A stretch of DNA of 64,000 nucleotides from Candidatus Marinacidobacterales bacterium (GTDB lineage Bacteria; Acidobacteriota; Vicinamibacteria; Marinacidobacterales; DATDRI01): positions 1,923,516 through 1,987,515 of the forward strand of contig OZ245365.1 in the NCBI GenBank assembly GCA_965226495.1, written 5' to 3'. Within the stretch, counting starts at the first letter, position 1, and the number at the start of each line of letters is the position of its first letter. Under the pieces are notes generated by a model. That model made no database searches. It was not told the origin of the DNA and saw only the letters and a list, made by a program, of their open reading frames with translations. This document shows positions 45,840 through 63,965 of the stretch, piece after piece. The translations under genes and the position numbers were made by a program.

Positions 45840-46609
45840 TCAGTGGCGCTTCGGTGCGCCTCAAACGTACGATTCTCGGTATCCAAGAGTTCACACTCTT
45901 GTCTTTCCGCGCGTTCCGAAATCTTTTTTCTCCTCCCCGGTATTGGAAGGACACTTTCGATATGATGGATATCATCGGGGTAGGCTCGGTGACCATCGTT
46001 TGTCTGACCGGACTATTTACCGGAATGGTACTCACCGTGCAAAGCTCCGCCACTCTAGACGCCTTTGGCGCGCGACCTTACGTGGGACGGATGGTTTCAC
46101 TTTCGATGATTCGCGAGCTGGGACCGGTCCTGACATCCCTGATGGTTGCCGGCCGAGTCGGCTCCGGTATGGCTGCCGAGCTCGGCTCGATGGTCGTGAC
46201 CCAGCAGATAGATGCGATGCGTTCCCTGGGCACCGATCCCATCCGAAAGTTGGTTACCCCAAGGATGGTGAGTGGGCTGGTGATGGTTCCGGTTCTGACC
46301 ATCTTGTCGGATGCGGTCGGAATGTTGGGGGGATTCTTGGTAGCGCGCTTTACGTTACGCTTGGCCACCGAGTTCTACTGGCACTCCGCGGTCGATGCCA
46401 TTCGGATGCAAGACATCTCGATGGGGCTCATAAAACCATTTGTCTTCGGGTACATTATTGTTGCGGTCGGATGCTATGTGGGACTTGGTACGCGCGGTGG
46501 AACCCAGGGGGTGGGCGTTTCGACGACACGCTCGGTGGTGATGGCCTCGGTTTTGATTCTGGCTGCTGACTATATCCTCAACTTACTCATCCTTCACTTC
46601 GTTTACTAG
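45827..46609 (+). CDS. mlaE: ABC transporter permease, MlaE/YrbE family
   Basis: Characteristic MlaE TM pattern and motifs. Confidence 0.8.
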
Positions 46610-47421: not shown

Positions 47422-47461
47422 TCTCTTTCAGGAATTCTCACCAGGAGCGGAGGAAAGCGTC

Positions 47462-48520: not shown

Positions 48521-48537
48521 GGCCGTCTGGCCAACGA

Positions 48538-49269
48538 CTAGTTGGTGCGGTCCGGACTGGGGGCAGGTTGACGCTCTTGCTCGTCGTGGCGGCGAAGCGC
48601 CTCCATCATGAACTCAGTTGTCGAACGTACCGACTGGATGTTGGAGCGTATGTTCGAGTGCACGAAGTTGAAACGGCCCCGGCGCAGCGGGATGAGCCGA
48701 TAGACGGCCTCCTCGCCTTGGTGCGGGCCCGTGAATCCGCCACAAATGTATCCATCCAGCAGGTGAATCTCACCGGTGGCTTCCTCGGTGTCGATGCGTA
48801 GTACGCCGGTAGCCTGGTTCGCTTCCAGCAGTTGAAGGATATCGGTGGTCTTGAAGTGAGAGAGATCTCCGGACAGCTCTCCTTGCTCGTTTCGTTGGTG
48901 AGCCTCGATTTGAGTTCGACAACGCCGGACGAGCTCCTTCATGCTGAACGGTTTGAGCAGGTAGTCGTCGGCGCCGGCGTCTAGACACGCGAGCCGGTGT
49001 TCGGGCGTGGAGTCCCCGGATACCAGTATCAGCGGGAGGTTGTCGAATCCGTGCCCGGCCCGAAGTGCCTTGCTGAAGGCGAGCCCGTCCATTTCGGGGA
49101 GATCGTTCTCACAAAGTACGAGGTCGGGCGTCTCCCGGCGAACCGCTGGGAGCGCCTCCCGGGCGTCTCGAAAGGCAGCGACGTCGAAGTCAGACTTCGC
49201 GAGGTACTGCTGGAGGACGCCGCTCAGGTCGGGATTCGGCTCAATGATAAGGATACGGTAGCGCGCCAT
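48538..49269 (-). CDS. Response regulator receiver with C-terminal DUF4388-like domain
   Basis: REC domain (phospho-acceptor Asp in LVLCENDLPEMDG) followed by a DUF4388-like region (KTTDILQLL..). Confidence 0.7.
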   Translation of the reverse strand: MARYRILIIEPNPDLSGVLQQYLAKSDFDVAAFRDAREALPAVRRETPDLVLCENDLPEMDGLAFSKALRAGHGFDNLPLILVSGDSTPEHRLACLDAGADDYLLKPFSMKELVRRCRTQIEAHQRNEQGELSGDLSHFKTTDILQLLEANQATGVLRIDTEEATGEIHLLDGYICGGFTGPHQGEEAVYRLIPLRRGRFNFVHSNIRSNIQSVRSTTEFMMEALRRHDEQERQPAPSPDRTN

Positions 49270-49466
49270 AGACGCATCGTCGGGTTGCACTGACCATTGT
49301 AAGGAGCGGGCCGAAGTCCTGTCAAATGTGATAGAAAGGAGTTTGATGGCCTCGATCGGCAATGATAAACTGATTAAATTGCTACCTCTGCTAGCACTTT
49401 GCTGCGGTCGCCTGAGCGTCAACAGCCGTCAGGAGAGCGGAGAAGGCGATCGTAGTAAGTGAGCCC

Positions 49467-50228
49467 ATGATCGAAAGTTTTGGAGTCACCGATATCGGTA
49501 GGCGCCGCCAACTGAACGAAGATGCCATGCTCATCGACGACAAAGCGGGCCTCTACGTTGTCGCCGACGGCATGGGTGGACACAATGCCGGCGAGGTCGC
49601 CTCTCAATTGGCGGTCGAGACAGTCTCCAATTTCGTCGGGCGCTCCGGCCATGACGAAGAGATCACGTGGCCGTATGGAGTGGACCCCGCGATTTCCATC
49701 AACGCGAACCGTCTCCGAACCGCCATCATGCTCGCGAACAAGCGAGTATGGAAAGAGGCTGACAATCGTGAAGACTATACCGGTATGGGGACTACCATCG
49801 TCGGGGGGCTCGCCGAAGACGCGAGTTTGATCCTGTGTGGAGCAGGTGATAGTCGGGCTTACCGATTCCGCGGGGTTGCCCTCGACCAGATTACGGTCGA
49901 TGACTCGTGGGTGCAGGTAGCTTTGAGCGAAGGACTCCTCCAGGCAGAGGAGGCCGAAAACCATCCGATGAAGAACATAATCACCAAAGCGGTAGGGGCA
50001 AAGCAGAACATCGACTTGACCGTACACGAGGAGGTTCTGGAGGACGGAGACCTCTACCTTCTTTGCACCGACGGGCTTCATGGAATGCTGAATCACGCGG
50101 GAATCGTCGAGATTCTGACTGCCAAGAAGGCCAACCTAGAAGAAGCAGTCCAGGGGCTCGTAGCCGCCGCCAACGAGAACGGCGGAAAAGACAACATCAC
50201 CGCAGTCGTGGTTCGCTACAGCAAGTAA
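49467..50228 (+). CDS. PP2C-family Ser/Thr protein phosphatase
   Basis: DIGRRRQLNED..VADGMGGH motifs. Confidence 0.85.
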   Translation: MIESFGVTDIGRRRQLNEDAMLIDDKAGLYVVADGMGGHNAGEVASQLAVETVSNFVGRSGHDEEITWPYGVDPAISINANRLRTAIMLANKRVWKEADNREDYTGMGTTIVGGLAEDASLILCGAGDSRAYRFRGVALDQITVDDSWVQVALSEGLLQAEEAENHPMKNIITKAVGAKQNIDLTVHEEVLEDGDLYLLCTDGLHGMLNHAGIVEILTAKKANLEEAVQGLVAAANENGGKDNITAVVVRYSK

Positions 50229-50278
50229 GTGTCTGACTCCGACGCGCAAACGCTTCGCGCCTTCGTGGCTCTTCGTAA

Positions 50279-51456
50279 TTGCGCCCTCACTCCTCGTTCG
50301 GGCGCTGGCCGCTACGCCGCCTTCGCGGCTGCGCGGCGGCTGAGGGCTCACCCGGCCGGCGGGCCTTCGGCCCTCTGCTGGATCTAGCGGTGTCGTCCTA
50401 TACTCAAACTAAGCGGCCGTCTTTGCTGAGCGAGGTCTTGGGGCCTTTCTGGCGACGCTTCGCTTGGGCGAGCGGCTACTTCGTTGCCATTCTCCTGATG
50501 GGTACGGTGGCGTACCGATTCATCGAGCAGTGGGACTGGTTCAATTCGTTCTACATGGCAGTCACCACGGTGAGCTCCGTGGGATTCATGGAAGTCGAGC
50601 CCCTCTCTCCGGGTGGGCGAGTCTTTACGATGTTGCTGATTGTCTTTGCCGTCACTGGACTCGGGATCTGGTGGGGTCTCACAACTGCGCTCATCGTCGA
50701 GCTCGATCTGGGTGGGGTGCTGCGGAGGCGTCGAATCATGAGGAAAGTCTCAGAGCTGACGAACCATTTCATCGTTTGCGGTGGGGGACGAATGGGGAGG
50801 GTCGTTGTGGAGGAGCTGTACACAACGGGTAAGCCCTTCGTCGTCATTGAGCGGGATGCTGCAAGGGCGGCGGCGATTCTGGAGCAGTTTCCGGGCATCC
50901 TTCTTATTGCCGACGACGCGACCAAGGAGCACACCTTGACCGAGGCCGGTATCGAGCGGGCCAGTGGCTTGGCGGCTTGTCTCACCGATGACGCAGAGAA
51001 CTTGTTGTTGTGCCTTACGGCCCGCGGTATGCGTTCCGACATGACCATTGTGGCGAGAGCCGCCTACCAAGAATCCTTGGACAAGCTCCGGAGAGCAGGA
51101 GCCGACCATGTGATGTCACCGATTGTGACGGGCGGTATACGCATCGCTTCCATGCTTCTGCGGCCTTCCGTGGTGAGCTACCTCGATGTGGCGACGACCG
51201 GCGCCGATGAGATGGCCCTTCGTTTGGAGGAAACGGATATACCGCAGAGCTCTCCTTTGGTTGGACGCTCGCTGTCGGAAGCAAAGATTCCACAGTGAAC
51301 GGGGCTCATCGTGATGTCGGTGCGTCACCGCACTGGGGGTGCCACCGCGACCCATAACCCCGGTCCGGAAACGTGCCTCGAGGCCGGGGACGTTTTGATC
51401 GTGCTGGGCCGTCAGGAACAGATCCAGCGGCTGCGGGAGTATGTACAGAAGGGCTA
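50279..51456 (+). pseudogene. Two-TM K+ channel with RCK (TrkA-N/TrkA-C) domain, frameshifted near 51295
   Basis: Pore region and RCK-N GxGxxG (CGGGRMG). The RCK-C tail (..TGLIVMSVRHR..GDVLIVLGRQEQIQRL) continues in another frame after the stop at 51298. Confidence 0.6.
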
Positions 51457-51518
51457 GAGGCATGCTAGCGTTTTCTCAGGCCCGGTGGTAACCTTTTGCG
51501 AAAGCAAGGAGAACGAAC

Positions 51519-52388
51519 ATGGCTCGGATCGTACGGGGCGGACTCATTCAAGCGTCTACACCTGGATCAGGGGCGGATCCAATCGAAAAGATCAAGAAGG
51601 CGATGGTGGAAAAACACCTTGGCCTCATCGATGAAGCGGCCGGCAAGGGAGTCCAAGTACTGTGTCTTCAAGAGCTCTTCTACGGGCCGTACTTTTGCGC
51701 GGAACAGAATTCGCGATGGTACGAGCTGGTGGAGCCCGTGCCCGGCGGTCCGGCTACCAAACTAATGCAGGAGCAGGCGAAAAAGCACGGCATGGTCATG
51801 GTGGTTCCCGTCTACGAGGAGCATATGCCCGGTGTCTACTACAACACCGCCGCGGTCATCGACGCCGATGGCAAGTACCTCGGAAAATACAGGAAGCACC
51901 ACATCCCGCACTGCGAACCCGGTTTCTGGGAGAAGTTCTACTTCAAGCCGGGCAACTTGGGCTATCCGGTTTTCGAAACGGCATTTGCCAAGGTCGGCGT
52001 TTACATTTGCTACGATCGCCATTTCCCTGAGGGGGCTCGCATCCTGGGCCTAAACGGGGCGGAGATCGTTTTCAATCCTTCCGCTACAGTGGCCGGGCTA
52101 TCGGAGCATTTGTGGCGACTCGAACAACCTGCCCATGCTGCCGCCAATCAGTATTGGATCGGCGCGATCAACCGCGTGGGTCACGAGCAACCATGGGACA
52201 TTGGCGAATTCTACGGCTCTAGCTACTTCTGCGACCCGCGAGGGCAAATCGTCACCGAAGGAAGCCGCGACAAGGACGAGGTGGTAGTCGCCGATCTCGA
52301 CTTGGACAGGATCGCGGAAGTTCGGCACACCTGGCAGTTCTTCCGGGATCGTCGTCCTGAAACTTACAACGAGATGACGCAGGTGTAA
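51519..52388 (+). CDS. Carbon-nitrogen hydrolase (beta-ureidopropionase / N-carbamoyl-amine amidase-like)
   Basis: Nitrilase-superfamily E-K-C triad context (LCLQELF, ICYDRHFPE). Confidence 0.8.
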   Translation: MARIVRGGLIQASTPGSGADPIEKIKKAMVEKHLGLIDEAAGKGVQVLCLQELFYGPYFCAEQNSRWYELVEPVPGGPATKLMQEQAKKHGMVMVVPVYEEHMPGVYYNTAAVIDADGKYLGKYRKHHIPHCEPGFWEKFYFKPGNLGYPVFETAFAKVGVYICYDRHFPEGARILGLNGAEIVFNPSATVAGLSEHLWRLEQPAHAAANQYWIGAINRVGHEQPWDIGEFYGSSYFCDPRGQIVTEGSRDKDEVVVADLDLDRIAEVRHTWQFFRDRRPETYNEMTQV

Positions 52389-52389
52389 C

Positions 52390-53709
52390 ATGAGTACTCC
52401 TACGAAGCGGGTTCCCGCCGGCCGCATGACCGGCGAAGAGATCGTCTCCAAGCACCGGCAATACATTTTTCCTTCCGTCGCCAACTACTACTCGAACCCT
52501 TTGCCCTTCGTCAGAGGCGAGGGAAAGCACTTGTACGATGCCGACGGGCGAGAGTATCTAGATTTCTTTGGCGGAATCCTGACCGTGAGCCTCGGGCATT
52601 GCCACCCGGAGGTCAACGCCCAGGTCAAGGAACAAGTGGATACTTTGCAACACGCTTCCACCCTCTACCCCACTGAGCCCATGGTGGCGGTGGCGGAAAA
52701 GCTGGCCCAAATAACTCCCGGGGATCTGCAACAAAGCGTCTTCACCAACTCGGGGACGGAGGCCAACGAGACCGCCCTCTTGCTGGCTCAGCTCTATACA
52801 GGTTCGGGTGAGGTCGTGGCCTTGCGGCATAGCTATAGCGGGCGCTCCTCCCTCGCTATGTCGGTGACGGGGCAGTCGAGTTGGCGGCTGGGGGGGACCC
52901 ACGTTGCCGGGATCAAGCACGTGGCCAATGCTTACTGCTATCGCTGCCCGTTCGGGTTGACCTACCCCAGCTGCGAGCTGCGCTGTGCGACGGACGTGGA
53001 AGAAGCGATCCAGACAACGACGTCGGGCAAGGTGGCCGCGTTCATCGCCGAACCCATCCAAGGTGTTGGAGGTTTCATCACACCGCCGCCCGAGTATTTC
53101 AAGATCGTCGTCGATATCGTTCGCAAGTACGGCGGGGTGTTCATTTGCGACGAGGTGCAGACTGGCTGGGGCCGGACCGGCGATCACTGGTTCGGCATCG
53201 AGCATTGGGGAGTCGAGCCAGAGATCATGACGTTCGCCAAGGGTATGGCGAACGGTGCACCCATCGGCGCTACGATCACCACGCCGGAGATCGCGGATAG
53301 TATCAAGGGAAGCACTATCTCCACTTTTGGTGGCAACCCCGTCAGCATGAGCGCGGCGCGCGCCGTCATCGACATCATCGAGAGAGACAATCTCAAGGAA
53401 AACGCGCGCGTGGTCGGCGATCACCTCCGTCAGGGTTTGGAGGCCCTCGCCGGTAAGTACCCCGTGATCGGCGATGTTCGCGGCAAGGGTTTGATGCAGG
53501 CTCTAGAACTGGTCGGTGAAGGGAAGGCTCCTGCCCCTCGAGCTACGGCCGCCCTTCTCGAGAACACGCGGGTGGAGGGTCTGATCATCGGGAAGGGTGG
53601 ACTCTACGGGAACGTGATTCGCATCAGCCCTGCCCTCAACGTGACCAAAGGGGATGTGGACGAGGCGCTGCGAATGTTAGACGCAGCGCTCGCAAACGTG
53701 CGTCCCTAG
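52390..53709 (+). CDS. Class III (omega) aminotransferase
   Basis: AT-III motifs, PLP lysine in TFAKGMANG. Confidence 0.85.
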   Translation: MSTPTKRVPAGRMTGEEIVSKHRQYIFPSVANYYSNPLPFVRGEGKHLYDADGREYLDFFGGILTVSLGHCHPEVNAQVKEQVDTLQHASTLYPTEPMVAVAEKLAQITPGDLQQSVFTNSGTEANETALLLAQLYTGSGEVVALRHSYSGRSSLAMSVTGQSSWRLGGTHVAGIKHVANAYCYRCPFGLTYPSCELRCATDVEEAIQTTTSGKVAAFIAEPIQGVGGFITPPPEYFKIVVDIVRKYGGVFICDEVQTGWGRTGDHWFGIEHWGVEPEIMTFAKGMANGAPIGATITTPEIADSIKGSTISTFGGNPVSMSAARAVIDIIERDNLKENARVVGDHLRQGLEALAGKYPVIGDVRGKGLMQALELVGEGKAPAPRATAALLENTRVEGLIIGKGGLYGNVIRISPALNVTKGDVDEALRMLDAALANVRP

Positions 53710-53718
53710 GGATCGCTA

Positions 53719-54723
53719 TCACTGGAAGCTAGGAACAACGTCGTTCGCATAATGTTCCAGCTGGCGCTCTTCATCTCCGCTCATTAGATAGAGGTTGAAC
53801 TGATCGACGCCCGCCTCTATCAGTTCCTCGAGTTTTTGCCGATGCGCCTCGGCAGAACCCACGATGGTGAAGCGGTCGACGATCTCGTCGGTGATGAAGC
53901 CTAAGTGGTCGGCGTCCTTATCGGCGTGCTCTTGATAGTCGTATCCCTTCCGTCCTTCGATGTAGTCCGTGAGCTCTTTCGGCAGCTCGCCCTCATGGTA
54001 CCGTTCGACGAGATCTGCGACGTGGTTTCCGACCATGGCCGGGAACCACCGAACTTGGGCTCGGGCTTTCGCGAGGTCGTCTTCGATCCACACCGGCGCC
54101 GCTGCTAGGACTTTGACGTCCTTGGTCTTTCTCCCGCTCCTCTGAGCGCTCTCTCGAGCGACGCCGGTGAACCAGCGAATGAGAAACGGGTCCGCGATCT
54201 GGAGGATTAAGCCCTCCGCGACTTCTCCGGTCATGGCGAGCACCTTTGGCCCGTAACCAGCCACCCAAACCGGAAGATTCCCGGAAGCCCACTTGAGCTG
54301 GACCGGCTGACCGTTGTGCACGACCTCTTGGCCGGATGAGAGGTCGCGGATCACTTGAACCGCTGTCCTCAGGCCGGCTACCGTCGTGGGGCGTTGTCCC
54401 AGAACTCGCCGCGAGCTATCGCCGCGACCGATGCCCATATCCATTCGGCCCCCGGAGATGATGTTCAGGGTGGCAAACAGGCTCGCGGTCACGGTGAGGT
54501 CTCGGACCGCCGGATTGGTCACCATCGTTCCGAGTCGGACCTTGCGGGTGTTGGCGGCCAGCAGAGCCAACATCGGGTAAGGCTCTTTCCAGAGGACGTG
54601 CGAATCGAAAGTCCACACGTACTTGAAACCGGCATCCTCGGCCATCTTGGTCAGAGCGACCGTCCGCTCCGGCGACATGTCGCCCTTGAAGGTGATTCCA
54701 AAGTCCAGCCGTCGCTTGGTCAT
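53719..54723 (-). CDS. Luciferase-like monooxygenase family oxidoreductase (F420/flavin-dependent)
   Basis: LLM TIM-barrel N-terminal pattern. Confidence 0.75.
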   Translation of the reverse strand: MTKRRLDFGITFKGDMSPERTVALTKMAEDAGFKYVWTFDSHVLWKEPYPMLALLAANTRKVRLGTMVTNPAVRDLTVTASLFATLNIISGGRMDMGIGRGDSSRRVLGQRPTTVAGLRTAVQVIRDLSSGQEVVHNGQPVQLKWASGNLPVWVAGYGPKVLAMTGEVAEGLILQIADPFLIRWFTGVARESAQRSGRKTKDVKVLAAAPVWIEDDLAKARAQVRWFPAMVGNHVADLVERYHEGELPKELTDYIEGRKGYDYQEHADKDADHLGFITDEIVDRFTIVGSAEAHRQKLEELIEAGVDQFNLYLMSGDEERQLEHYANDVVPSFQ

Positions 54724-54911
54724 ACCGACCTCTTTTGAAAGCGCTTGTCCACTGTGCCGCTCTCGCGAGAAGCCCGTGCGGGAGAAGCCCGTGCGGGCCG
54801 TGATGAGGCTTCAGTCTTTCTCAACTCGGCTGGTAGGTCAACAGCGTCTTGTTGACAACCTGCGAAACCATTCCTTATCATCCGCTCCATATCTCGTTCC
54901 CGAAACTGAAA

Positions 54912-56393
54912 ATGCAAGAGTCTCTCCTAAAGATGTCTCGAAGCCGAGGAGGGCTCTACGAGCTCAACGTCGACTCCTTGGAGCCACGGCTCTACAACAG
55001 AGATCTGGCGCCCACCAAGGTCGCCGAGCGAGGGTGGGGTACGTACGACGTAGCCGCCTTGTGGGTCGGCCTTTCAGTGAACATACCGACTTACATGCTT
55101 GCCGCTGCGCTTATCGAAGGGGGCATGAATTGGTGGCAGGCGATCCTTACCATCACTTTAGGCAATCTCATCGTCTTGGTACCCATGATCTTGAACGCGC
55201 ACGCCGGGACCAAGTTTGGGATTCCTTTCCCGGTTCTGGCGCGGGTCTCGTTCGGAGTTCTCGGGTCGAATATACCGGCTCTCCTTCGTTCCTTCGTAGC
55301 CTGCGGTTGGTTTGGGATTCAAACCTGGATCGGGGGTTCCGCCATCAATGCGACGATGAACATTGTGTGGCCCGCTTGGTCGAGCTTCGCATTCGGCCCG
55401 GCGGTCTGTTTCATGGTTTTCTGGCTCATCAATATTTGTGTGATCGTCCGTGGACCGGAGAGCATTCGGAAGTTGGAGGGTTGGGCCGCCCCCTTTTTGA
55501 TCGTCGCCGGACTGGCGCTCCTGTTTTGGGCGATGTCGCGGGCCGGCGGGCTGGGTCCGATGCTGGCTCGCCCCAGCAGCTTTCAGTCGTCCGCCGAGTT
55601 CTTTCGATTCTTCATTCCCTCGCTCACCGCGATGGTGGGCTTCTGGGCGACGCTAGCTCTCAACATCCCGGACTTGACGCGATTCGCCCGGGGGCAGAAG
55701 GAGCAAATGCTGGGACAGGCATTGGGGCTTCCGCCTACCATGGCTCTCTTTGCGTTCATCGGAGTCGCCGTCACCTCGGCCACCGTCCTCATTTTCGGCG
55801 AAGCGATATGGGATCCGGTGGAACTAATTTCACGGTTGGGGAACCCGTTCGTGGTTGCGGTGGCGATGGTCGCGCTGGCGGTGGCTACGCTTTCCACGAA
55901 CGTGGCAGCGAACGTCGTCGCGCCGGCGAACGGATTCGCCAATTTATGGCCGGAAAAAATGACTTTCGCTCGCGGGGGGATTCTGACTGGCGTCATAGGC
56001 ATCGTGATGATGCCCTGGAAGCTTCTGGCCGACTATGGCACTTACATCTTCGGCTGGCTGGTGGGCTATTCCGGTTTCCTCGGCCCCATCGCAGGCATCT
56101 TCATCGTGGACTATTTCTTGATCCGAAAGCAGAACCTCTCCCTCTACGATCTCTATCGCCGCGGTGGGCTGTACGAGTATGAACACGGTTTCAATTGGAG
56201 GGCGGTGGGTGCGCTGGTCGCAGGGATCCTGGCGGCGCTGGTGGGACTGGTTTTTCCAGTTCTGCGAGTGCTCTACGACTATTCGTGGTTCGTTGGCTTC
56301 GGCGTGGCCGCGGTCGTCTATTACCTGTCCATGCCAGCCGTGCCGCAGCTCGATCTCTCTGTGGTGCCCCTGAGAACCGAGGACGAAAGGTGA
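54912..56393 (+). CDS. NCS1-family nucleobase:cation symporter (cytosine/uracil/hydantoin/allantoin permease-like)
   Basis: 12-TM NCS1 topology and N-terminal region typical of CodB/PucI-like permeases. Confidence 0.8.
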   Translation: MQESLLKMSRSRGGLYELNVDSLEPRLYNRDLAPTKVAERGWGTYDVAALWVGLSVNIPTYMLAAALIEGGMNWWQAILTITLGNLIVLVPMILNAHAGTKFGIPFPVLARVSFGVLGSNIPALLRSFVACGWFGIQTWIGGSAINATMNIVWPAWSSFAFGPAVCFMVFWLINICVIVRGPESIRKLEGWAAPFLIVAGLALLFWAMSRAGGLGPMLARPSSFQSSAEFFRFFIPSLTAMVGFWATLALNIPDLTRFARGQKEQMLGQALGLPPTMALFAFIGVAVTSATVLIFGEAIWDPVELISRLGNPFVVAVAMVALAVATLSTNVAANVVAPANGFANLWPEKMTFARGGILTGVIGIVMMPWKLLADYGTYIFGWLVGYSGFLGPIAGIFIVDYFLIRKQNLSLYDLYRRGGLYEYEHGFNWRAVGALVAGILAALVGLVFPVLRVLYDYSWFVGFGVAAVVYYLSMPAVPQLDLSVVPLRTEDER

Positions 56394-57580
56394 GCGCTCC
56401 GCTGTCAGGGATCACGATTCTAGACCTCTCGCGTATTTTAGCGGGTCCTTACTGCACGATGGTCCTCGGGGATCTGGGTGCAGAGGTGTTAAAGGTCGAG
56501 CCTCCATACGGCGACGATTCTCGCGGTTGGGGGCCGCCGTTCGTCGAAGGGGAAAGTGCGTATTTCCTTGCCGTCAATCGAAACAAAAGGAGCATTTGTA
56601 TCAATCTGAAGCGAGCCAGCGGCCGTGACCTCTTGCATCGGCTTGCCGGCAAGGCGGACGTCCTGGTGGAGAACTTCCGGCCCGGAACACTAGACCGTCT
56701 GGGCTTCAGCTACGAGACGATCCGAGCGACTCGCCCGGAGATCATCTATTGCTCGATCTCCGGTTACGGGCACAGCGGACGTCTCAAGCAGCGGCCTGGT
56801 TACGATGCGGTCATGCAGGGAGAAGGCGGGTGGATGAGCTTGACTGGCGAACCCGACGGTCCACCCCTGAAGCTGGGAGCCTCTTTGGCCGATATCTTCA
56901 CCGGGACGATGGCGACGCAAGGAATCCTCGCCGCCCTTCACCAACGCAATACCACCGGGAAGGGACAGAAAATAGATGTCGCCCTGTTCGACAGCGTCTT
57001 GGCGACGCTTTGCTACCAGGCGCAGGGCTATCTCCTCACTGGCGAAAGTCCAGAGCGCTTAGGAAATAGGCATCCCTCCTTGTCTCCATACGAAACGTTC
57101 GAGACCTCCGATGGCTATGTGATAGTCGGTGTGGGTAACGACGCGCTCTGGCGTTCATTCTGTCGCGCGGTCGGAAGGCCCGATCTCGACGAGCCAGGTT
57201 TCGAGACCAACGCGCTTCGGGTCGAAAATTATGTCGAGCTCAAAAAACTCCTGGTGCCGATGTTCCTGAGTGGCTCCACCCAACATTGGTTGGACGTGCT
57301 CGAGCCCGCGGAAATACCGGTGGGACGGGTGCGTTCGGTGCCAGAGGCTTTGTCCAATCCGCAAGCGGTCGATCGGCAGATGCTAATCGAGGTAGAGCAC
57401 CCCACCATTGGCCGAATGAGGATGACTGGCAACCCCATCAAAATGTCTGGCCTTCCGGACGTCCCCGCGCTTCCTCCTCCCCGGTTGGGACAACATACGG
57501 AGGAAGTGTTGTCGGAGAAACTAAACCTCAGCTCAGAGGAAATCGAAGCCCTTCGTGGGGAGGGTGCGCTGGGCTCGTGA
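56390..57580 (+). CDS. CoA-transferase family III (CaiB/BaiF)
   Basis: GITILDLSRILAGPYCTMVLGDLGAEV N-terminus. GTG start overlaps the NCS1 stop. Confidence 0.85.
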   Translation: MSAPLSGITILDLSRILAGPYCTMVLGDLGAEVLKVEPPYGDDSRGWGPPFVEGESAYFLAVNRNKRSICINLKRASGRDLLHRLAGKADVLVENFRPGTLDRLGFSYETIRATRPEIIYCSISGYGHSGRLKQRPGYDAVMQGEGGWMSLTGEPDGPPLKLGASLADIFTGTMATQGILAALHQRNTTGKGQKIDVALFDSVLATLCYQAQGYLLTGESPERLGNRHPSLSPYETFETSDGYVIVGVGNDALWRSFCRAVGRPDLDEPGFETNALRVENYVELKKLLVPMFLSGSTQHWLDVLEPAEIPVGRVRSVPEALSNPQAVDRQMLIEVEHPTIGRMRMTGNPIKMSGLPDVPALPPPRLGQHTEEVLSEKLNLSSEEIEALRGEGALGS

Positions 57581-58911
57581 TTCTCAACAACGCCAACGTC
57601 GTTACGTTCTGGGACTCTGAACCGTTCCTCAAAGGTGCGTTGGTCGCCATCGAGGGGAAGGTCATCGTCGATTTCGGCAGCGTGGGTAAGTTGGCCGACC
57701 GATACGACGACGCCGACACTCTCGACGTGGGCGGCCGGATCGTTATGCCCGGACTCATCAACGCGCACACTCATTTGGGCAGAACTTTGACACGGGGGAT
57801 GCCAATCAAAGGGGAAACACCGCGGACCTTTCAAGAGATGCAAGAAGCGCTTTGCTGGAAACCGGATCGGGCTTTGAGCGAGGAGGACGTCTATCTAGGT
57901 ACGTTGATAGGGCTGCTGGACTCCGTCCGCGCCGGAGTCACCACTGTAATCGATCACCACTCCAGTCCGGCGGTGGTCCCCGGTTGCCTCGATTCCGTTT
58001 GGAAGGCGTTCTCCGAAGTCGGAGTTCGGGGAGCACTCTCATATGCCGTTTCCGATCGGGACGGCTCTAGGGTGAGTCAGGCCGGAATCGACGAGAACCG
58101 CCGATTCATCGAGCGGTGCAAGGCGGAGGGCTCGGAAATGATGAGCGGATTGTTCGGGCTGGAGGCGTCTCATGCTGTCTCCCAACGGACTCTCGAGCAG
58201 GCCGTCGCTGCACACCGCGAGGTCGGCGGCGGTTTCCATGTACACGTAGCGGAGGATCGTGGCGATCTCGAGGCCACGCGTCGGGAGTACGGAGCGACAC
58301 CGGTCGCGCGCCTGGCTGCTGCCGGCGTTCTGAACAAAGGAAGCCTGGCCGTCCACTGTGTTCACCTGGAAGACTCCGACTATCGTGAGCTAAAGGTGCG
58401 CGGTGTGCGCGCCGTGGTTTGCCCTCAGTCGAACGCGGCATCGGGTGTCGCCGCGGAAGGCACCGCCGATCTGGCCCGCCTTCGGGGCGCCGGTGTTTCG
58501 ACCGTGCTCGGCACGGACGGAGTGACCGCCAGCGTGTTCGAGGAGTTCAGAGCGGCGGCGCTCATTCAGCGAGTGATGGGACTTCCTTCTTCGAGAGCGA
58601 AGAGGGAGGCGTTTCAGGCCACGTTCTCGGGCAACGGGTTACTGGCGGCCGAGCTCTTCGGGACGACACTCGGAAAGATCAAGCCTGGGGCCCGGGCCGA
58701 CCTCGTGGTGTTGGATCATCAACCGGCAACGCCTCTCACGGTTGAGAATTTCGCGGACCACTTTTTTTTCGGCATGAGCCGAGCGCCGGTCTACGCCGTC
58801 GTTATCAACGGCAGGCTCGTTTTCAAGCAAGGCGTATTTCTCAACCTCGACGAGTCGCGGATTCGGGGCCGGGCCCGTCGAGCCGCCGAAGCCTTGTGGA
58901 AACGCACGTGA
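57577..58911 (+). CDS. Amidohydrolase of the chlorohydrolase/cytosine-guanine deaminase (SsnA/TRZ-ATZ) family
   Basis: PGLINAHTHL metal-binding motif. GTG start overlaps the CoA-transferase stop. Confidence 0.8.
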   Translation: MILNNANVVTFWDSEPFLKGALVAIEGKVIVDFGSVGKLADRYDDADTLDVGGRIVMPGLINAHTHLGRTLTRGMPIKGETPRTFQEMQEALCWKPDRALSEEDVYLGTLIGLLDSVRAGVTTVIDHHSSPAVVPGCLDSVWKAFSEVGVRGALSYAVSDRDGSRVSQAGIDENRRFIERCKAEGSEMMSGLFGLEASHAVSQRTLEQAVAAHREVGGGFHVHVAEDRGDLEATRREYGATPVARLAAAGVLNKGSLAVHCVHLEDSDYRELKVRGVRAVVCPQSNAASGVAAEGTADLARLRGAGVSTVLGTDGVTASVFEEFRAAALIQRVMGLPSSRAKREAFQATFSGNGLLAAELFGTTLGKIKPGARADLVVLDHQPATPLTVENFADHFFFGMSRAPVYAVVINGRLVFKQGVFLNLDESRIRGRARRAAEALWKRT

Positions 58912-58915
58912 ATAG

Positions 58916-59010
58916 AGGTGCCTTTCTCCGTTAATCCCTCTCCCTTTGGGAGAGGGCCTGGGTGAGGGCGAGAGGTGCCTTTCTCCGTTAATCCCGCTCC
59001 CCGCTGCGGA
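58916..59010. repeat. Intergenic repeat block: 23-bp direct repeat x2 flanking an inverted copy of the small palindromic element, plus a second hairpin
   Basis: AGGTGCCTTTCTCCGTTAATCCC at 58916 and 58973. CCCTCTCCCTTTGGGAGAGGG hairpin at 58936-58956. CTCCCCGCTGCGGAG hairpin at 58997-59011. Confidence 0.7.
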
Positions 59011-59153
59011 GATTCCGGGCGTCAAAAGATGGCGTGCCGCTATCAGTCGAGCCAGACGGGCTTGCGTACGCTGTTGGCCGTCAAAATACGCTGTGCCAAA
59101 GAAAAATGTGGCCAGACGGCGGGTGAGGGCGCGGTGTTGTTGGGAGACGCGGG

Positions 59154-59675
59154 CTACAACTCAGTAACGGTGACGACGATCTGAGCCGTCCAGCCATCGG
59201 GATCGTTGCCGTTGTTTCTTCCGTCGTGGGGCCAGTCCCGTCCCGCGCCGTTACGGCCGTCGATGGACCAGCCATCGTTATCGGCGTCGTTCAAGTAACG
59301 CCTGAGTCGTCCTGTGGTGTCATCGAACGCCGCGCGATAGTCCGCGTCCGTAAACTGGTCGTTCACGCGATCGATGGCGGCTTGAAGAGCCACTCGAGCC
59401 GCTTCGTTATTCAAGTTCGTCGCGCCGACGGAGTTGCTCAGGTTGTCGACTCCCAACAGTATTTGGCCGATGCGGGCATCGGTCGTAGTACCTCGACTCC
59501 ACAGCGCGTCAGAGTCCGAGTTCCGGTAGACTGTGATCAGGGTGGTAATCTCGAACTGCGGTGCGGTCGAGGTCGGGGGCGGAGTCGTTGGGCTCGGACT
59601 CGTTGGACTGCTGTCGCTACCACAAGCAGCAAGTATGGCAACGGCGAGCAACGGGAGGATGGTGTGGATTCTCAT
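59154..59675 (-). CDS. Lipoprotein, hypothetical
   Basis: Signal peptide with lipobox (LAACGS), Pro/Thr/Ser-rich linker. Confidence 0.5.
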   Translation of the reverse strand: MRIHTILPLLAVAILAACGSDSSPTSPSPTTPPPTSTAPQFEITTLITVYRNSDSDALWSRGTTTDARIGQILLGVDNLSNSVGATNLNNEAARVALQAAIDRVNDQFTDADYRAAFDDTTGRLRRYLNDADNDGWSIDGRNGAGRDWPHDGRNNGNDPDGWTAQIVVTVTEL

Positions 59676-59761
59676 GGTGTCTAGCCTCATGTCAAAGAAG
59701 AAAGCTTAGCAACGGACAGAGGTTCTGTCAAAGTGAGATGTTAAATAGAGGAGGACAGCGA

Positions 59762-60046
59762 ATGGCGAAAGCGATGTGGAACGGCAAGGTCGTTGCCGAG
59801 TCGGACAAGACGGAAGTGGTCGAGGGGAATCAATACTTTCCTCCTGACTCTGTCAAAAAGGAATACCTGCAACCCAGCGATAAGGAAACCGTCTGTCCGT
59901 GGAAGGGGACGGCGAGTTATTACAATGTCGTGGTCGATGGGAACGTGAACGAGAATGCCGCTTGGTGTTACGCCAAGCCTAGGGATGCCGCGAAGCGGTT
60001 CAAGGACTATGTGGCTTTTTGGAACGGCATCGAAGTAGAAACCTAG
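59762..60046 (+). CDS. DUF427-domain protein
   Basis: Typical DUF427 N-terminus (MWNGKVVAESD..VEGNQYFP), ~95 aa. RBS GGAGGA. Confidence 0.7.
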   Translation: MAKAMWNGKVVAESDKTEVVEGNQYFPPDSVKKEYLQPSDKETVCPWKGTASYYNVVVDGNVNENAAWCYAKPRDAAKRFKDYVAFWNGIEVET

Positions 60047-61527
60047 GAAGCCCCCCCGGACATCAATTTCTCTATACCATCGGCCGATCGGGGCAACTCT
60101 TTGGTAAACACCTCGTGACCGTCATTGGTGATCAGGACGACTTCTTCCACCGTAATGCGCCAACCCTTGTCGGGGATATAGAGATGCAATTCGTAGGACA
60201 TGACCTGTCCTGGACGAAGAGGAGAAGTGTAGTCCTCGTGAATATGCATGTTCATCCCCAAGTAGTGCCCCGAACGGCGTTTTCCGACCCGCTCGGCGAA
60301 CCGTTCGGCGGGTCCGCGCAGCCAATCGGGTAGGCCGTCCAATCGCTCTTTCATGGTCTGGGCAGCCATCTCGCCAGCGCGCATGAACGGTACGCCGGGG
60401 CCCAGCGCCTCGAGTCCAGCCTCGTATGCGGCGAGGTAGGTTTCGTAGGCCAAGCGCTGTTCGGGGTTGAACCGACCGGAGACCGGCACCGTCCTCGCCA
60501 GATCGGAGACGTAATAGTTGACCTCGGCGCTGTGGTCGACCATCACCAGCTCCCCCGCCTCCATCGTTCGGTTCTCCAGATCGTAGGAACCGAAAATATC
60601 GATGAAGCCGCGCATGGAATTCGGACCCGACTGGATGTCGGCGCTATACGCCGTGAACTGAGCCCCCGCGCGTTTGAATGCGAGTTCGATCTCGGCCGCC
60701 ACTTCGCGCTCATCGACGCCCGGAGCGACGGTCGCGATGCCCGCCATAATCCCTCGTGTAGATATTTGCGCGGCCCGTCGCAGCGCGGCGATCTCCTCGT
60801 CGTCCTTCACCCGTCGCATGTCCTCCGTGATCGGCAAGATGGAGCGGACGTCGGCCTTGGGAAATCGCTTCTCGAAAGCCTCCACGATCGCGTCCTCGCG
60901 ATACGAGCCGTGCTCACCGCCCGGAAGGAATGAAGGGAAAGGAGCTTGGACTCCAAACGACGCCTGCCTGGAAACGGAATCGTGACTTCTCGCGACCATA
61001 TAGACCGGGTCTGCCCCAATCGCGTTGTCGAGATCCGTCTCGAATCGCTCCATGGGAATCGGCTCACCCAGACCGAGCCGCGTGAGTTCCGCCGCGACTT
61101 TGTCCGTGACTCGCGGGACGTAGACGCGTGTCATCGCGCTCTTCGGCGTCAAGACGATCGCCACACCCGGCATGCTCAGGCCGGTGAGATAGAAAAGGTT
61201 TTCCTCTTGCCGGAAACCCTGCACGCGGAAATAGGAATTGTGTCGGTGTTCGTCCCACGCATCGATGACGCCCTTTTCGCCGAAGAGAACAACGACCCCC
61301 CCGGGAATGCTCTCCGCCAGTCGCGTGCGGCGCGCCGCAAAAGTCGAGGGAGAGAAGACATCGGCATGTGTAAGGAATTTGCCGGAGGAGACTTGGTTGG
61401 TCCCTTGCTCGTCAGCGCCGACGGTGGCCGTCAGCTCTGACCCTTGCTGGCAGCCCCCGCTGAGAAAGACGGAAAGGGTGAAAAAGACGAAGGAGGAGAA
61501 AAGGAACATCAGTTTGTAGAGGTTCAT
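60043..61527 (-). CDS. Secreted M24-family Xaa-Pro aminopeptidase
   Basis: Signal peptide/lipobox (LSGGC), creatinase-type N-terminal domain, pita-bread metal ligands (..HYLGMNMHIHE..). Confidence 0.8.
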   Translation of the reverse strand: MNLYKLMFLFSSFVFFTLSVFLSGGCQQGSELTATVGADEQGTNQVSSGKFLTHADVFSPSTFAARRTRLAESIPGGVVVLFGEKGVIDAWDEHRHNSYFRVQGFRQEENLFYLTGLSMPGVAIVLTPKSAMTRVYVPRVTDKVAAELTRLGLGEPIPMERFETDLDNAIGADPVYMVARSHDSVSRQASFGVQAPFPSFLPGGEHGSYREDAIVEAFEKRFPKADVRSILPITEDMRRVKDDEEIAALRRAAQISTRGIMAGIATVAPGVDEREVAAEIELAFKRAGAQFTAYSADIQSGPNSMRGFIDIFGSYDLENRTMEAGELVMVDHSAEVNYYVSDLARTVPVSGRFNPEQRLAYETYLAAYEAGLEALGPGVPFMRAGEMAAQTMKERLDGLPDWLRGPAERFAERVGKRRSGHYLGMNMHIHEDYTSPLRPGQVMSYELHLYIPDKGWRITVEEVVLITNDGHEVFTKELPRSADGIEKLMSGGAS

Positions 61528-61652: not shown

Positions 61653-63965
61653 TTACAACTTGTCTTTCGGCTGATTTAGTTGGAACGGAACGAGTAGCCC
61701 TGCAAGCAGGTAGAGCGCCGCCGCCGAAATCATTACAACCCGGAAGCCGTAGCTCATGGCGAGGAGCGTCGCGAGAGGTGGCGCCAATACGCTGGCGCAA
61801 CCATTGACCGCCCACGCCCAGGGCGCCAGTCGTGCGGCTTTCGTTTTCACTTGCTCCAGGCCGCTGGGGAAGGGCATACCCATGAGGAATGCGATGGGTG
61901 CAAGCAGAATTGCCGTGATCAGGACTCGCGCCGTGTCGCTGAGCTTGAGGAGAAGCGAGAACACGGGGTTCAGAGCCAGAGCATAGATGGATGCCAGAAT
62001 CGCGATCCCGACGGCTACAGTGGGAAGCGGCAACCGATGACTCACCAGGCTACCCAGGCCCGAGAAAATGAGCATTGAGGCGATCACGATTGTCGCCGAG
62101 AGGACCGGATAAGACAAGAAGAGGGTGAATTTTTGAATGAGCGCGATCTCGAGGAAGAGATAGCCTAGCCCGAGGCATCCGAAGTAGAGGGCCACCTTCG
62201 AACGGCCGTATTCCGGTCTGCGCAGGTCCGGAACCAGGATGAATGGGGCGAGCACCAACCCGATCGAGGCAACGATCGCTTGCGCGAGCACCGCGAGTAA
62301 CATGACGTAGCCCCATTCGACGAAAGGAATCCACTGCAATCCCAATTCGGAGACGAGTGAGGGCAAGGTGTCCCACCGGAAGAAGTTGAAGAAATAGGGT
62401 CGGTCGTCGACCGCGGGCTCTAACTGAAACGGGTAATCGCGGAGAAACTCGCTTCGCCGAGGAGAGAGCATTTCTCTGGCGCTATGAGCGTAGTACGGTT
62501 CCGGCAAGACGTGATGGCGGTTCGTCTCTTCCGGTGTGAGTCCGGGGTGCCAGAAACGGTCGAAGGACCGAGCCTCGCTGAACTTGCGCACCGCTTGAAC
62601 GTTGGCGGCGCTCACGGGTGCAGCCGACACTAATAAGGTTGCGGTCGCCCAGCTCCGAATCCCCACCAGGTGATCGCCAGGTGCGCTCACCCCACGTTTT
62701 TCTAACGCGGCCGCAGCGGTATGGAATATACGAGGGACGTCACGAGGGGGTGTCTTGATCCAACGGGTGAGCGCGAGCACCCCTGTCGGAGTGAGTCGGC
62801 CTATCGCTGCATCCAGAGACTCGACGGTGTAGAGGTAACTCTCGCTCGTCGCCTGGACCCCGGCGGCGGAGGATGCGAACGAGTCCAGCAGGGAGATACT
62901 GATGACGTCGAAATTCTCGGAGCCCATCTCGAGGAATCGTCTGGCTTCTGTTAGTCGCACCTCGACTGCCGGATGATCGTAAAGGCCGCCGCTGTGGTCG
63001 CGGAGAGTATCTCCCACCAGCGTGGCCACGTTTTCGTCGAGCTCGACGGCAACGACCCGACGCGCACCGTGTTGTAGCGCCGACAAGACCTCGATCCCTC
63101 CTCCCGCTCCTAGGACGAGCACGGAAGGATCTGGTCGGGCCAGACGGTACGGCAGAGCAGAGGTCATGTAGTCAAGGAAACTGAGATCGGAATCCCTGGG
63201 TTGGGTTATCGAGCCCAACTGGTCGCCATCGGAGAAGAGTCCGACCTGCGGGGGGATGTCGCCGATGAACGCGAGCGAGAGGCCGGGCGCGTAACGAACG
63301 GTCGGTCCGGCGACGGCGTCGACCACGGCGAGCGGGCTTATCGCGTGAGCCTTTCTCCGGGAGCCAGTGGCTTGAAGTGCTGTGGCCAGACCCTTGTAGG
63401 GGGAGAACTTCTGGGGGATGAGCGAGGCGGCCACCGGTGCAATCAGGGCGGCGACGAGGGCGAGTAGGGCAACGCGTTTACGGGCTGCGGCGAGTGCGGC
63501 CGCGAGCGCCGCAGCGATGGCAACTGGTCCAACTGCCTGGAGCGGTTCCAGCCAATATAGAAGCAGTGTGATCGATAAAGCACCAAGTCCAGCTCCCACC
63601 AGGTCAGAGAAATAGATGATGCGCACGCGTCGCCAGCCGATTAACGCCAAGGCGAGCGCCGCTCCTCCCAGACCGAAAGGGACACCCAGAAAGAAGTAGA
63701 AGGCCAGCAACCACAACGCTTCCTTCGGCGTCCACACGATCATGAACGGTTCGAAAGAGACTTGGAGCGCTGCGGCCAGTCCACCGAGCTCCGCCACCGC
63801 TGTTCCGAGAGCCAAGGGTGCGAAGAGGCGATCGGCTGCACCGGGACGTGGTTGGACGATGGACAGGACGGTCCCACTCGCGCCGAGACCGAGCATGGCG
63901 ACGCTGAGGATCAAGTAGGCAAAGTGATACCAGAGAGAGATGGAGAAGACGCGAAGGAGGGTCAC
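61653..63965 (-). CDS. Polytopic membrane protein fused to spermidine-synthase-like (class I SAM MTase fold) domain
   Basis: Many TM helices plus VLVLGAGGGIEV..VVAVELDENV..FDVISISLLDS aminopropyltransferase-like motifs. Confidence 0.7.
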   Translation of the reverse strand: MTLLRVFSISLWYHFAYLILSVAMLGLGASGTVLSIVQPRPGAADRLFAPLALGTAVAELGGLAAALQVSFEPFMIVWTPKEALWLLAFYFFLGVPFGLGGAALALALIGWRRVRIIYFSDLVGAGLGALSITLLLYWLEPLQAVGPVAIAAALAAALAAARKRVALLALVAALIAPVAASLIPQKFSPYKGLATALQATGSRRKAHAISPLAVVDAVAGPTVRYAPGLSLAFIGDIPPQVGLFSDGDQLGSITQPRDSDLSFLDYMTSALPYRLARPDPSVLVLGAGGGIEVLSALQHGARRVVAVELDENVATLVGDTLRDHSGGLYDHPAVEVRLTEARRFLEMGSENFDVISISLLDSFASSAAGVQATSESYLYTVESLDAAIGRLTPTGVLALTRWIKTPPRDVPRIFHTAAAALEKRGVSAPGDHLVGIRSWATATLLVSAAPVSAANVQAVRKFSEARSFDRFWHPGLTPEETNRHHVLPEPYYAHSAREMLSPRRSEFLRDYPFQLEPAVDDRPYFFNFFRWDTLPSLVSELGLQWIPFVEWGYVMLLAVLAQAIVASIGLVLAPFILVPDLRRPEYGRSKVALYFGCLGLGYLFLEIALIQKFTLFLSYPVLSATIVIASMLIFSGLGSLVSHRLPLPTVAVGIAILASIYALALNPVFSLLLKLSDTARVLITAILLAPIAFLMGMPFPSGLEQVKTKAARLAPWAWAVNGCASVLAPPLATLLAMSYGFRVVMISAAALYLLAGLLVPFQLNQPKDKL

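Follow-up and report, generated by a model that had tools for sequence, protein, structure and literature searches.

The stretch of DNA analysed here (the window) covers 64,000 nucleotides (nt), G000:C1:1923516-1987515, of the 6.34-Mb single-contig genome of an acidobacterium of soil type and Vicinamibacteria type. The nearest proteins in databases bear Vicinamibacteria names, and at genome level the best match is a metagenome-assembled genome of 'Candidatus Marinacidobacterales'. Towards its right end lies a block of six genes that code for a CN-hydrolase, a class-III aminotransferase, an oxidoreductase of the LLM (luciferase-like) family, an NCS1 permease, a family-III CoA-transferase and an SsnA-like amidohydrolase (Table 1). 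The genes were identified by open reading frame (ORF) listing together with Pfam and NCBIfam profile scans. An earlier, sequence-only reading of the window counted seven consecutive genes, but only six are present. All of them are real, look intact and are located as that reading placed them; the LLM gene is on the minus strand and diverges from the NCS1 gene. Comparison genomes, loci and families are cited below by working numbers (G, L and f).

Table 1 Features of the window and of related places in the host genome; positions without a prefix are those of the window
Feature	Position	Strand	Model or motif	Score (bits)	Cut-off (bits)
MlaE-ABC-MlaD lipid-transport genes, then PatA-type response regulator with DUF4388 (PatA_N)	45827-49422				
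CN-hydrolase	51519-52388	+	CN_hydrolase, PF00795	208	
Class-III aminotransferase	52390-53709	+	Aminotran_3, PF00202	346	
LLM oxidoreductase	53719-54723	-	TIGR03842	449	295
Sigma-70-like promoter candidate	54852-54881	+	TTGACA, 18 nt, TATCAT		
NCS1 permease	54912-56393	+	TIGR00800	388	353
Family-III CoA-transferase	56390-57580	+	CoA_transf_3, PF02515	449	
SsnA-like amidohydrolase	57577-58911	+	NF005540; TIGR03314	419; 408	444; 455.5
178-amino-acid ORF	59154-59690	-	no Pfam match		
770-amino-acid protein	61653-63965	-	spermine/spermidine-synthase domain (weak match only)		
CysK/SbnA-like and ThrC-like genes, just past the window's right end	L012:1360-3742 (G000:C1:1988360-1990742)				
Canonical dihydropyrimidinase	G000:C1:3394906-3396381		TIGR02033	645	393
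Second locus (L105): pucD-like XDH, M28 peptidase, D-aminoacylase-like (UacY-like) amidohydrolase	G000:C1:3906001-3926000				
Second locus (L105): selenium-dependent XDH			TIGR03311	933	830
Second locus (L105): very divergent SsnA paralogue			SsnA	290	
Second locus (L105): Mer-like LLM (LLM2)					

The aminotransferase gene starts 2 nt past the stop codon of the CN-hydrolase gene. The last three genes overlap by 4 nt, as had been read from the sequence, with a GTGA start/stop overlap at both the NCS1/CoA-transferase and the CoA-transferase/SsnA junctions. The start of NCS1 was set at the first in-frame ATG (54912), the ORF itself opening at a TTG (54849). The LLM and NCS1 genes are separated by a spacer of 190 nt, which contains a promoter-like site that agrees with the consensus at 11 of 12 positions and lies about 30 nt 5' of the NCS1 ATG. 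This site is only suggestive, given that a promoter and terminator scan of the region yielded site counts not above those of shuffles. An Rfam scan of 50000-60500 found no riboswitch and no other RNA family. The catalytic motifs look intact in the translations of all six proteins. The flanking genes are unrelated to the block: a Mla transporter, a PatA-like regulator and a TrkA-type channel lie upstream, and a 178-amino-acid protein, an M24 peptidase and a spermine-synthase-like gene lie downstream.

The best solved relative of the CN-hydrolase is Drosophila beta-alanine synthase (2vhh, 217 bits), followed by N-carbamoylputrescine amidase and then by human beta-ureidopropionase, and the Glu/Lys/Cys motifs are visible in its translation. 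An assignment as AguB was rejected (TIGR03381, 254 bits against a cut-off of 410). The protein is proposed to be of the beta-ureidopropionase/N-carbamoyl amidase type, with N-carbamoyl-beta-alanine and N-carbamoyl-beta-aminoisobutyrate as its putative substrates. The aminotransferase reaches the cut-off of no NCBIfam equivalog; its nearest solved relatives are an AGXT2-like phospho-lyase, amino-acid racemases and GABA aminotransferases, and it is proposed to act on beta-alanine and beta-aminoisobutyrate. The allantoin and cytosine permease equivalogs stay under cut-off for the NCS1 permease, which is proposed to import uracil and thymine (or dihydropyrimidines) as the product of the first gene of an NCS1-CoA-transferase-SsnA unit.

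The nearest solved structure to the LLM is Mer, the F420-dependent 5,10-methylenetetrahydromethanopterin reductase (1f07, 130 bits, full length). Like Mer (1f07, 1z69, 8qpl), the LLM belongs to the LLM/TIM-barrel family and presumably uses F420. Unlike Mer, it comes from a host that is no methanogen, it is found in a pyrimidine-catabolic context, and its scores with the Mer models are far under their cut-offs (167 against 276 and 148 against 349). Because the genomic context is pyrimidine catabolism, a different substrate is proposed for the window protein, namely the C=C bond of a pyrimidine ring. The host makes F420, because CofD, CofH and CofE of its genome all score above their cut-offs.

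PydA-type dihydropyrimidine dehydrogenase was not found genome-wide with PreT and PreA queries, nor in the window by family scans. In tblastn searches of the genome, E. coli PreT has no match and E. coli PreA has a single match of 27% identity at about 293 kb, which is probably the biosynthetic dihydroorotate dehydrogenase. The sequence-only reading took both the dehydrogenase and dihydropyrimidinase to be absent. This holds for the dehydrogenase throughout the genome with these queries, but for dihydropyrimidinase it holds in the window only. A canonical dihydropyrimidinase, the sole copy in the genome, stands alone amid signalling genes at a distance of about 1.4 Mb and is 60-65% identical to dihydropyrimidinases that adjoin LLM genes in other genomes.

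The phyletic pattern of the LLM, defined by TIGR03842, was analysed in 300 other genomes of the phylum. The LLM is carried by 15 of them, dihydropyrimidinase by 94 and a PreA-like gene by 45. Every one of the 15 LLM genomes has both dihydropyrimidinase and CofD, and PreA is missing from all of them. Dihydropyrimidinase is also present in 43 of the 45 PreA genomes, and CofD occurs in 29 of the 300 genomes but in none of those with PreA. Among the dihydropyrimidinase-positive genomes, LLM and PreA never overlap, as against 6.9 genomes expected to have both; the hypergeometric P of ~3e-5 is too favourable, because related genomes in the sample are not independent. These counts take in G024, which is positive for the PreA-like gene and dihydropyrimidinase, and the outcome is the same without it. 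Within a single family (f37) the LLM is found in some genera and PreA in others.

The neighbourhoods of the LLM gene point in the same direction. In ten of ten phylum genomes with close homologues (55-61% identity), the LLM gene adjoins dihydropyrimidinase and/or orthologues of the window CN-hydrolase and NCS1 permease. Orthologue identities at these ten loci are 70-91% for the CN-hydrolase and 49-64% for NCS1, and an aldehyde dehydrogenase is among the neighbours at LLM loci of the phylum. The window aminotransferase has an orthologue at one of the ten loci (L121, 58%), and another at L151 (79%) also lies in an LLM/CN-hydrolase/dihydropyrimidinase cluster. LLM homologues of about 60% identity on long contigs, including those of Chloroflexota, adjoin a 464-amino-acid dihydropyrimidinase; such loci also contain an M20 or CN-hydrolase carbamoylase, an NCS1 or NMT1-type ABC importer, and a class-III aminotransferase with an aldehyde dehydrogenase. 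In G387, a member of the host's family, a CN-hydrolase-aminotransferase pair, the LLM and a dihydropyrimidinase-like gene lie side by side, a layout equal to the left half of the window block plus a ring-opening gene of the canonical type. The orthologues in these neighbourhoods and the G387 arrangement lend support to the earlier assignment of the CN-hydrolase and the aminotransferase to the two terminal steps of pyrimidine degradation.

Because neighbourhoods with dihydropyrimidinase are conserved, the overlap with PreA is zero and the gene is confined to F420 makers, the LLM very probably replaces dihydropyrimidine dehydrogenase as an F420-type reductase of uracil and thymine. The non-orthologous substitution suggested by the sequence-only reading is thereby strengthened. 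A literature search found no published description of an F420-dependent dihydropyrimidine dehydrogenase, and only work on uric acid surfaced.

Five of the 15 LLM carriers belong to family f72. Their LLM is 43% identical to that of the window and does not lie beside dihydropyrimidinase. At these loci (L113-L117, in G296, G196, G186, G236 and G206, respectively) the TIGR03842 scores are 520-528 bits, above that of the window LLM, and the genomes still have dihydropyrimidinase and CofD and are without PreA. G236 has an additional, truncated LLM copy with a TGA stop.

The reductive pyrimidine (Pyd) pathway consists of PydA/PreTA or a ferredoxin-dependent PydAc (PMC7332683), the dihydropyrimidinase PydB and the beta-ureidopropionase PydC, with an aminotransferase extension. 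As in the Pyd pathway, a nucleobase permease, a beta-ureidopropionase-like CN-hydrolase, an omega-aminotransferase and a canonical dihydropyrimidinase are present in the genome, and the overall logic of reduction, ring opening, decarbamoylation and transamination would be the same. Unlike in the Pyd pathway, an unrelated TIM-barrel LLM of the F420 class takes the place of the PydA/PreTA flavin/Fe-S reductase, dihydropyrimidinase is outside the cluster, and SsnA and a family-III CoA-transferase are inside it.

The block is interpreted, with a confidence that only just outweighs our doubt, as a composite nucleobase-catabolic island of two modules, a PydA-less F420 pyrimidine module and a CoA-transferase-SsnA unit. 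All catalytic assignments, including the use of F420 and the substrates of the LLM, SsnA and the CoA-transferase, are predictions from homology, neighbourhood and phyletic pattern. The first module would comprise the CN-hydrolase, the aminotransferase, the divergent LLM and NCS1, and would form a reductive pyrimidine pathway without PydA. Uracil or thymine would be taken up by NCS1, and its C5=C6 bond would be reduced by the TIGR03842 LLM with F420H2. The remote canonical dihydropyrimidinase would then open the ring, the CN-hydrolase would remove the carbamoyl group, and the aminotransferase would convert beta-alanine or beta-aminoisobutyrate to malonate or methylmalonate semialdehyde. The second module would be the translationally coupled CoA-transferase-SsnA pair, which in this genus is fused behind NCS1. 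Fusion of the two modules within one family of Vicinamibacteria is the best reading of the arrangement.

The amidohydrolase of the second module is 34% identical to E. coli SsnA and scores just below both curated SsnA cut-offs. It belongs to a diverged SsnA clade of the Vicinamibacteria order and is a putative hydrolase of the ring-opening or deaminase type. Two studies of 2025 have reported that E. coli SsnA, coupled to the reductase YgfK, opens the six-membered ring of reduced 2,8-dioxopurine and that the product is a ureido-substituted hydantoin (PMC12507026; bioRxiv 10.1101/2025.04.24.650524). A quick maximum-likelihood tree of 87 sequences, with GuaD as the root, places the window SsnA clade inside the SsnA family as the sister (SH-aLRT 80) of SsnAs of Bryobacterales and Gemmatimonadota whose gene neighbours are Xdh, YgeW, YgeY and carbamate kinase. 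Fifty-one SsnAs from uricolytic contexts were compared with 15 of the window clade over the 97 columns with a conservation of at least 90%. The window clade keeps 86 of these columns and has replacements in the other 11. Among the replaced residues are some that are invariant in 51/51 uricolytic SsnAs: L89 (replaced by Q/R), E157 (by A/G/V), H196 (by D/E), N289 (by S/G) and T200. In the alignment with the deaminase 4f0r, H196 falls on the His of its APHAPYT motif, the active-site mapping being based on this one aligned motif, and its position is presumably that of the residue at the end of beta-4 near the substrate in this amidohydrolase subgroup. The family-invariant or near-invariant residues are kept in the window SsnA, including the H64/H66, H221/H223 and D314 motifs, which are taken as metal-binding. 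A search of solved structures returned only distant deaminases (3hpa, 119 bits). Because uricolytic-invariant residues are lost whereas the presumed metal-binding motifs are kept, a substrate change in the window SsnA clade is plausible.

About 14 of the 18 loci of the window SsnA clade, some of them possibly from the same species, have the CoA-transferase gene immediately 5' of SsnA. No window-type CoA-transferase was found at 76 other SsnA loci or at the 20 LLM loci examined. Its best structural match is human SUGCT (9br6, 352 bits), and YfdE-like 4hl6 also matches (314 bits); the SUGCT/YfdE group comprises succinate-hydroxymethylglutarate and acetyl-CoA:oxalate CoA-transferases. No equivalog model (SucGlutTfsCaiB, YfdE, Frc, mesaconate) is passed, the best score being 367 against a cut-off of 750. 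The enzyme shares with SUGCT/YfdE full-length similarity, the fold family and a presumed catalytic Asp region; it differs in scoring below the equivalog cut-offs, and no described member of that group is coupled to an SsnA-type amidohydrolase. By sequence similarity, the conserved partner of the window SsnA clade is a CoA-transferase of the dicarboxylate (SUGCT/YfdE-like) type. Activation of malonate or methylmalonate by this enzyme would be a guess.

Sixteen relatives were searched for dihydropyrimidinase. Fifteen of them, all except G384, carry the window-type SsnA, and dihydropyrimidinase is kept in 14; the two relatives that are without it have the least complete assemblies. Because dihydropyrimidinase is retained and the partners of SsnA are the CoA-transferase and selenium/molybdenum maturation genes, also where the LLM lies elsewhere, the window SsnA is probably not a stand-in for dihydropyrimidinase. 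The earlier suggestion that it replaces this enzyme was not supported, and replacement at the level of the genome was rejected, given the canonical enzyme in the host and in those 14 relatives.

These results also bear on the possibility that the block is a single self-contained pyrimidine pathway, in which the LLM reduces the ring, SsnA opens it, the CN-hydrolase and the aminotransferase finish the degradation, and the CoA-transferase serves to activate malonate, methylmalonate or a similar C3 acid. Such a pathway would fit with the 4-nt overlaps of NCS1, CoA-transferase and SsnA behind a promoter-like site divergent from the LLM, and with a block order that is kept in at least four related genomes. 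In G387 the dihydropyrimidinase-like gene occupies the position of these three genes. The changed residues of the SsnA clade would allow for a new substrate, SsnA is termed 'related to PydB' by those who deposited the E. coli work, and the CoA-transferase is nearest to dicarboxylate CoA-transferases. However, a PydA-less host and most of its relatives retain the canonical dihydropyrimidinase, so that the two ring-opening enzymes show no complementarity, and in most of the order the CoA-transferase-SsnA pair has no LLM, NCS1 or CN-hydrolase gene nearby. Conversely, neither SsnA nor a window-type CoA-transferase was found at any of the 15 LLM loci of the phylum sample or at five further LLM loci. 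In G357, SsnA is an apparent pseudogene while the LLM, the CN-hydrolase and the aminotransferase are intact. A single pathway is therefore considered unlikely. The two-module interpretation instead regards the CoA-transferase-SsnA pair as the older unit of the order, beside selenium-molybdenum hydroxylase maturation genes of the YqeC/MocA/YqeB type and carbamate kinase. In this view, the window SsnA belongs to a clade that has diverged, much like a paralogue, from the enzyme for the opening of reduced 2,8-dioxopurine, and it would most likely act on another reduced or amidine-type N-heterocycle rather than as the dihydropyrimidinase of the first module.

Gene content, orthology, neighbourhoods and phyletic patterns are direct observations, and they show how variable the site is among relatives. 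The full block is kept in order in the host genome, L009, L024/L134 and L132, and it is split in L010 by inserted CNNM and GGACT genes; in keeping with the gene cluster proposed by the sequence-only reading, a gene-neighbourhood conservation search thus found the block again, and its arrangement is not due to chance. At this syntenic site, SsnA stands by itself in L011, L135, L136 and L141, a CoA-transferase-SsnA-GDSL run is found in L128, L138-L140 and L144, and L131 has an LLM | NCS1-CoA-transferase-SsnA arrangement. An aminotransferase-CoA-transferase-SsnA-GDSL run occupies it in L129/L137 and L130, and the aminotransferase that heads these operons is an orthologue (77%) of that of the window. 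Maturation genes of the YqeC/MobA/XdhC type, in places together with carbamate kinase, are nearly always present downstream of the SsnA site across the order. The LLM can also lie away from the SsnA locus: it adjoins the dihydropyrimidinase-like gene in G387, is 14 kb from such a gene in G306, and is 62-415 kb from SsnA in G346 and G390. In G357, which belongs to the same genus as the host (L132, G357:C23:213300-233299), SsnA is 80% identical and interrupted by 3-4 in-frame stops, and the frameshifted NCS1 is split over three frames. The CN-hydrolase (95%), aminotransferase (94%), LLM (89%) and CoA-transferase (91%) genes of this genome are intact. The SsnA and NCS1 defects reflect either gene decay or an error in a metagenome-assembled genome. 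As a side observation, a gene for a GDSL/SGNH hydrolase lies right after SsnA in most relatives (L128-L131, L135-L141, L144, L010, L011), and it is missing at this place in the host genome, L009 and L024.

Such variation could also be neutral and stem from rearrangements, the site between the Mla/PatA/TrkA and spermine-synthase-like genes being prone to recombination; the two halves of the block would then be functionally unlinked. Between the same flanks, the content indeed ranges from SsnA alone to the full block, with the two extra genes in L010. This explanation is nevertheless judged highly unlikely: all of the inserted genes belong to the catabolism of N-heterocycles or beta-amino acids, the aminotransferase and CN-hydrolase groups have joined SsnA and LLM contexts independently in other lineages, and NCS1 is fused to the CoA-transferase-SsnA pair by translational coupling.

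The CN-hydrolase and the aminotransferase are probably common to both modules. Class-level relatives have a CN-hydrolase orthologue (69-70%) within an SsnA-CN-hydrolase-(UacY-like amidohydrolase) run, of which the UacY-like gene was detected in L146 only. The 2,3-diureidopropionate and 3-ureido-2-aminopropionate of the purine pathway are substituted N-carbamoyl-beta-amino acids. Because of this relationship, one enzyme of the beta-ureidopropionase type could plausibly serve both pyrimidine and purine routes, and the window CN-hydrolase possibly acts on beta-ureido groups of purine-derived intermediates as well. In the two-module scheme, the CN-hydrolase and the aminotransferase would also complete the breakdown of the beta-ureido and beta-amino products of SsnA.

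The uric acid pathway of E. coli and clostridia comprises XdhD, YgfK/UacX, SsnA, HyuA, YgeW/UacY, YgeY, YgeX and YqeA, and YqeB and YqeC are treated as markers of the selenium cofactor trait (PMC12507026; bioRxiv 10.1101/2025.04.24.650524). The window resembles it in having an SsnA-family amidohydrolase and, 5-12 kb downstream, genes for YqeC, a transferase of the MocA type, a protein of the YqeB/XdhC type and a carbamate kinase that is 47-49% identical to YqeA; this downstream region also codes for CysK-like and ThrC-like pyridoxal phosphate (PLP) enzymes. Unlike in the uric acid pathway, Xdh (XdhD/XdhA), YgfK/UacX, HyuA and YgeW/Y/X were not found within 10 kb of the window SsnA, which itself is below the curated cut-offs and has the 11 replaced residues, and whose fixed partner is a CoA-transferase that is absent from all described uricolytic clusters. 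The downstream 427-amino-acid PLP enzyme was rejected as YgeX (21% identity; 305 bits with the threonine-synthase model NF006050 against a cut-off of 303), and a minus-strand ORF of 351 amino acids after XdhC is spurious, the true gene being the plus-strand carbamate kinase. Homologues (28-52%) of the CysK/SbnA-like and ThrC-like enzymes recur by SsnA in clusters of Bacillota, Acidobacteriota and Verrucomicrobiota, mostly without a YgeX match, and they may substitute for diaminopropionate ammonia-lyase in those clusters.

A locus that resembles the uric acid pathway more fully lies elsewhere in the host genome, where a selenium-dependent XDH, an SsnA paralogue and an LLM of the F420 type (LLM2) are found together (Table 1). 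Li et al. have described LLMs of the F420 type (PF00296) beside SsnA in Chloroflexota, and they report this F420 variant of the uric acid pathway for Chloroflexota only. Eight Chloroflexota loci have an LLM next after SsnA; LLM2 shares 73-75% identity with these LLMs and 25% with the window LLM. Because of this match, the variant of Li et al. corresponds to the second locus and not to the window, and the second locus would be its acidobacterial case. The window LLM, at 24-25%, was ruled out as the Chloroflexota F420 reductase. In G417, an LLM2 orthologue lies beside a 79% orthologue of the host dihydropyrimidinase, a YgeX-like and an SsnA-like gene, near a selenium-dependent XDH. The single dihydropyrimidinase of the host may hence serve both the pyrimidine and the purine routes.

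The second locus is relevant to the idea that all six genes together form a variant of the reductive uric acid/2,8-dioxopurine route. In that case YgfK would be replaced by the LLM as an F420 purine reductase, with SsnA as the enzyme that opens the six-membered ring. The role of HyuA would fall to the remote dihydropyrimidinase and the ureido cleavage of YgeW/YgeY to the CN-hydrolase, and the aminotransferase would act on 2,3-diaminopropionate. The sole characterised role of SsnA is indeed the opening of a purine ring, and the Chloroflexota clusters of Li et al., the genes 5-12 kb downstream and the SsnA-CN-hydrolase-(UacY-like) run agree with this idea. However, the SsnA-adjacent LLMs of Chloroflexota match LLM2 rather than the window LLM, whose orthologues go with dihydropyrimidinase, never with SsnA outside this family, and are anti-correlated with the pyrimidine enzyme PreA. 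Furthermore, orthologues of YgfK, YgeW, YgeY and YgeX were not found in the host genome. A purine route for the whole block is thus very unlikely.

Several points weigh against the division into two modules. The functions of the six proteins and of their close homologues are predictions. The NCS1-CoA-transferase-SsnA trio is translationally coupled across the proposed boundary, and the dihydropyrimidinase-type gene of G387, which stands where the trio stands here, can be read as a positional replacement. With its uricolytic-invariant residues lost, SsnA could possibly have shifted to dihydropyrimidines. Given the G417 orthologue beside an LLM2-type LLM, the host dihydropyrimidinase may be primarily a hydantoinase of the purine pathway. 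The aminotransferase and CN-hydrolase groups occur with both SsnA and the LLM, and the modules may be inseparable. In addition, many of the comparison genomes are metagenome-assembled and kin among them are not independent, and the neighbouring genes were annotated by tblastn with reference proteins.

If the assignment of the LLM is true, F420 would gain a defined housekeeping function among soil Acidobacteriota and Chloroflexota, and the first step of pyrimidine breakdown would have a third, structurally unrelated solution besides the NAD(P)H-dependent and ferredoxin-dependent enzymes. Genomes in which the pathway now seems incomplete could then be annotated correctly. The literature proposes SsnA as a robust marker for gene clusters of uric acid degradation; the diverged clade described here, which scores near the cut-off outside the pathway context and has lost several invariant residues, calls for caution in this use. 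The CoA-transferase-SsnA unit may mark an unexplored catabolic route for N-heterocycles. We suggest only tentatively that the block joins two undescribed items, an F420H2-dependent luciferase-like uracil/thymine reductase, in place of the flavin/Fe-S dehydrogenase in Acidobacteriota and Chloroflexota that make F420, and a new N-heterocycle route of an SsnA lineage of the Vicinamibacteria order with a remodelled pocket and constant coupling to a dicarboxylate-type CoA-transferase, often along with the window-type aminotransferase and a GDSL hydrolase. This route may have its beta-ureido amidase and beta-amino transaminase in common with pyrimidine catabolism. A candidate would be a pathway initiated by a molybdenum hydroxylase and ending in malonyl-CoA or methylmalonyl-CoA.

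The borders of the variable site are themselves conserved. The Mla and PatA genes form its left flank order-wide. On the right, the 178-amino-acid ORF is a neighbour of SsnA/GDSL in nearly every locus of the order, with 55-82% identity, and the 770-amino-acid protein keeps its position in relatives with 56-88% identity.

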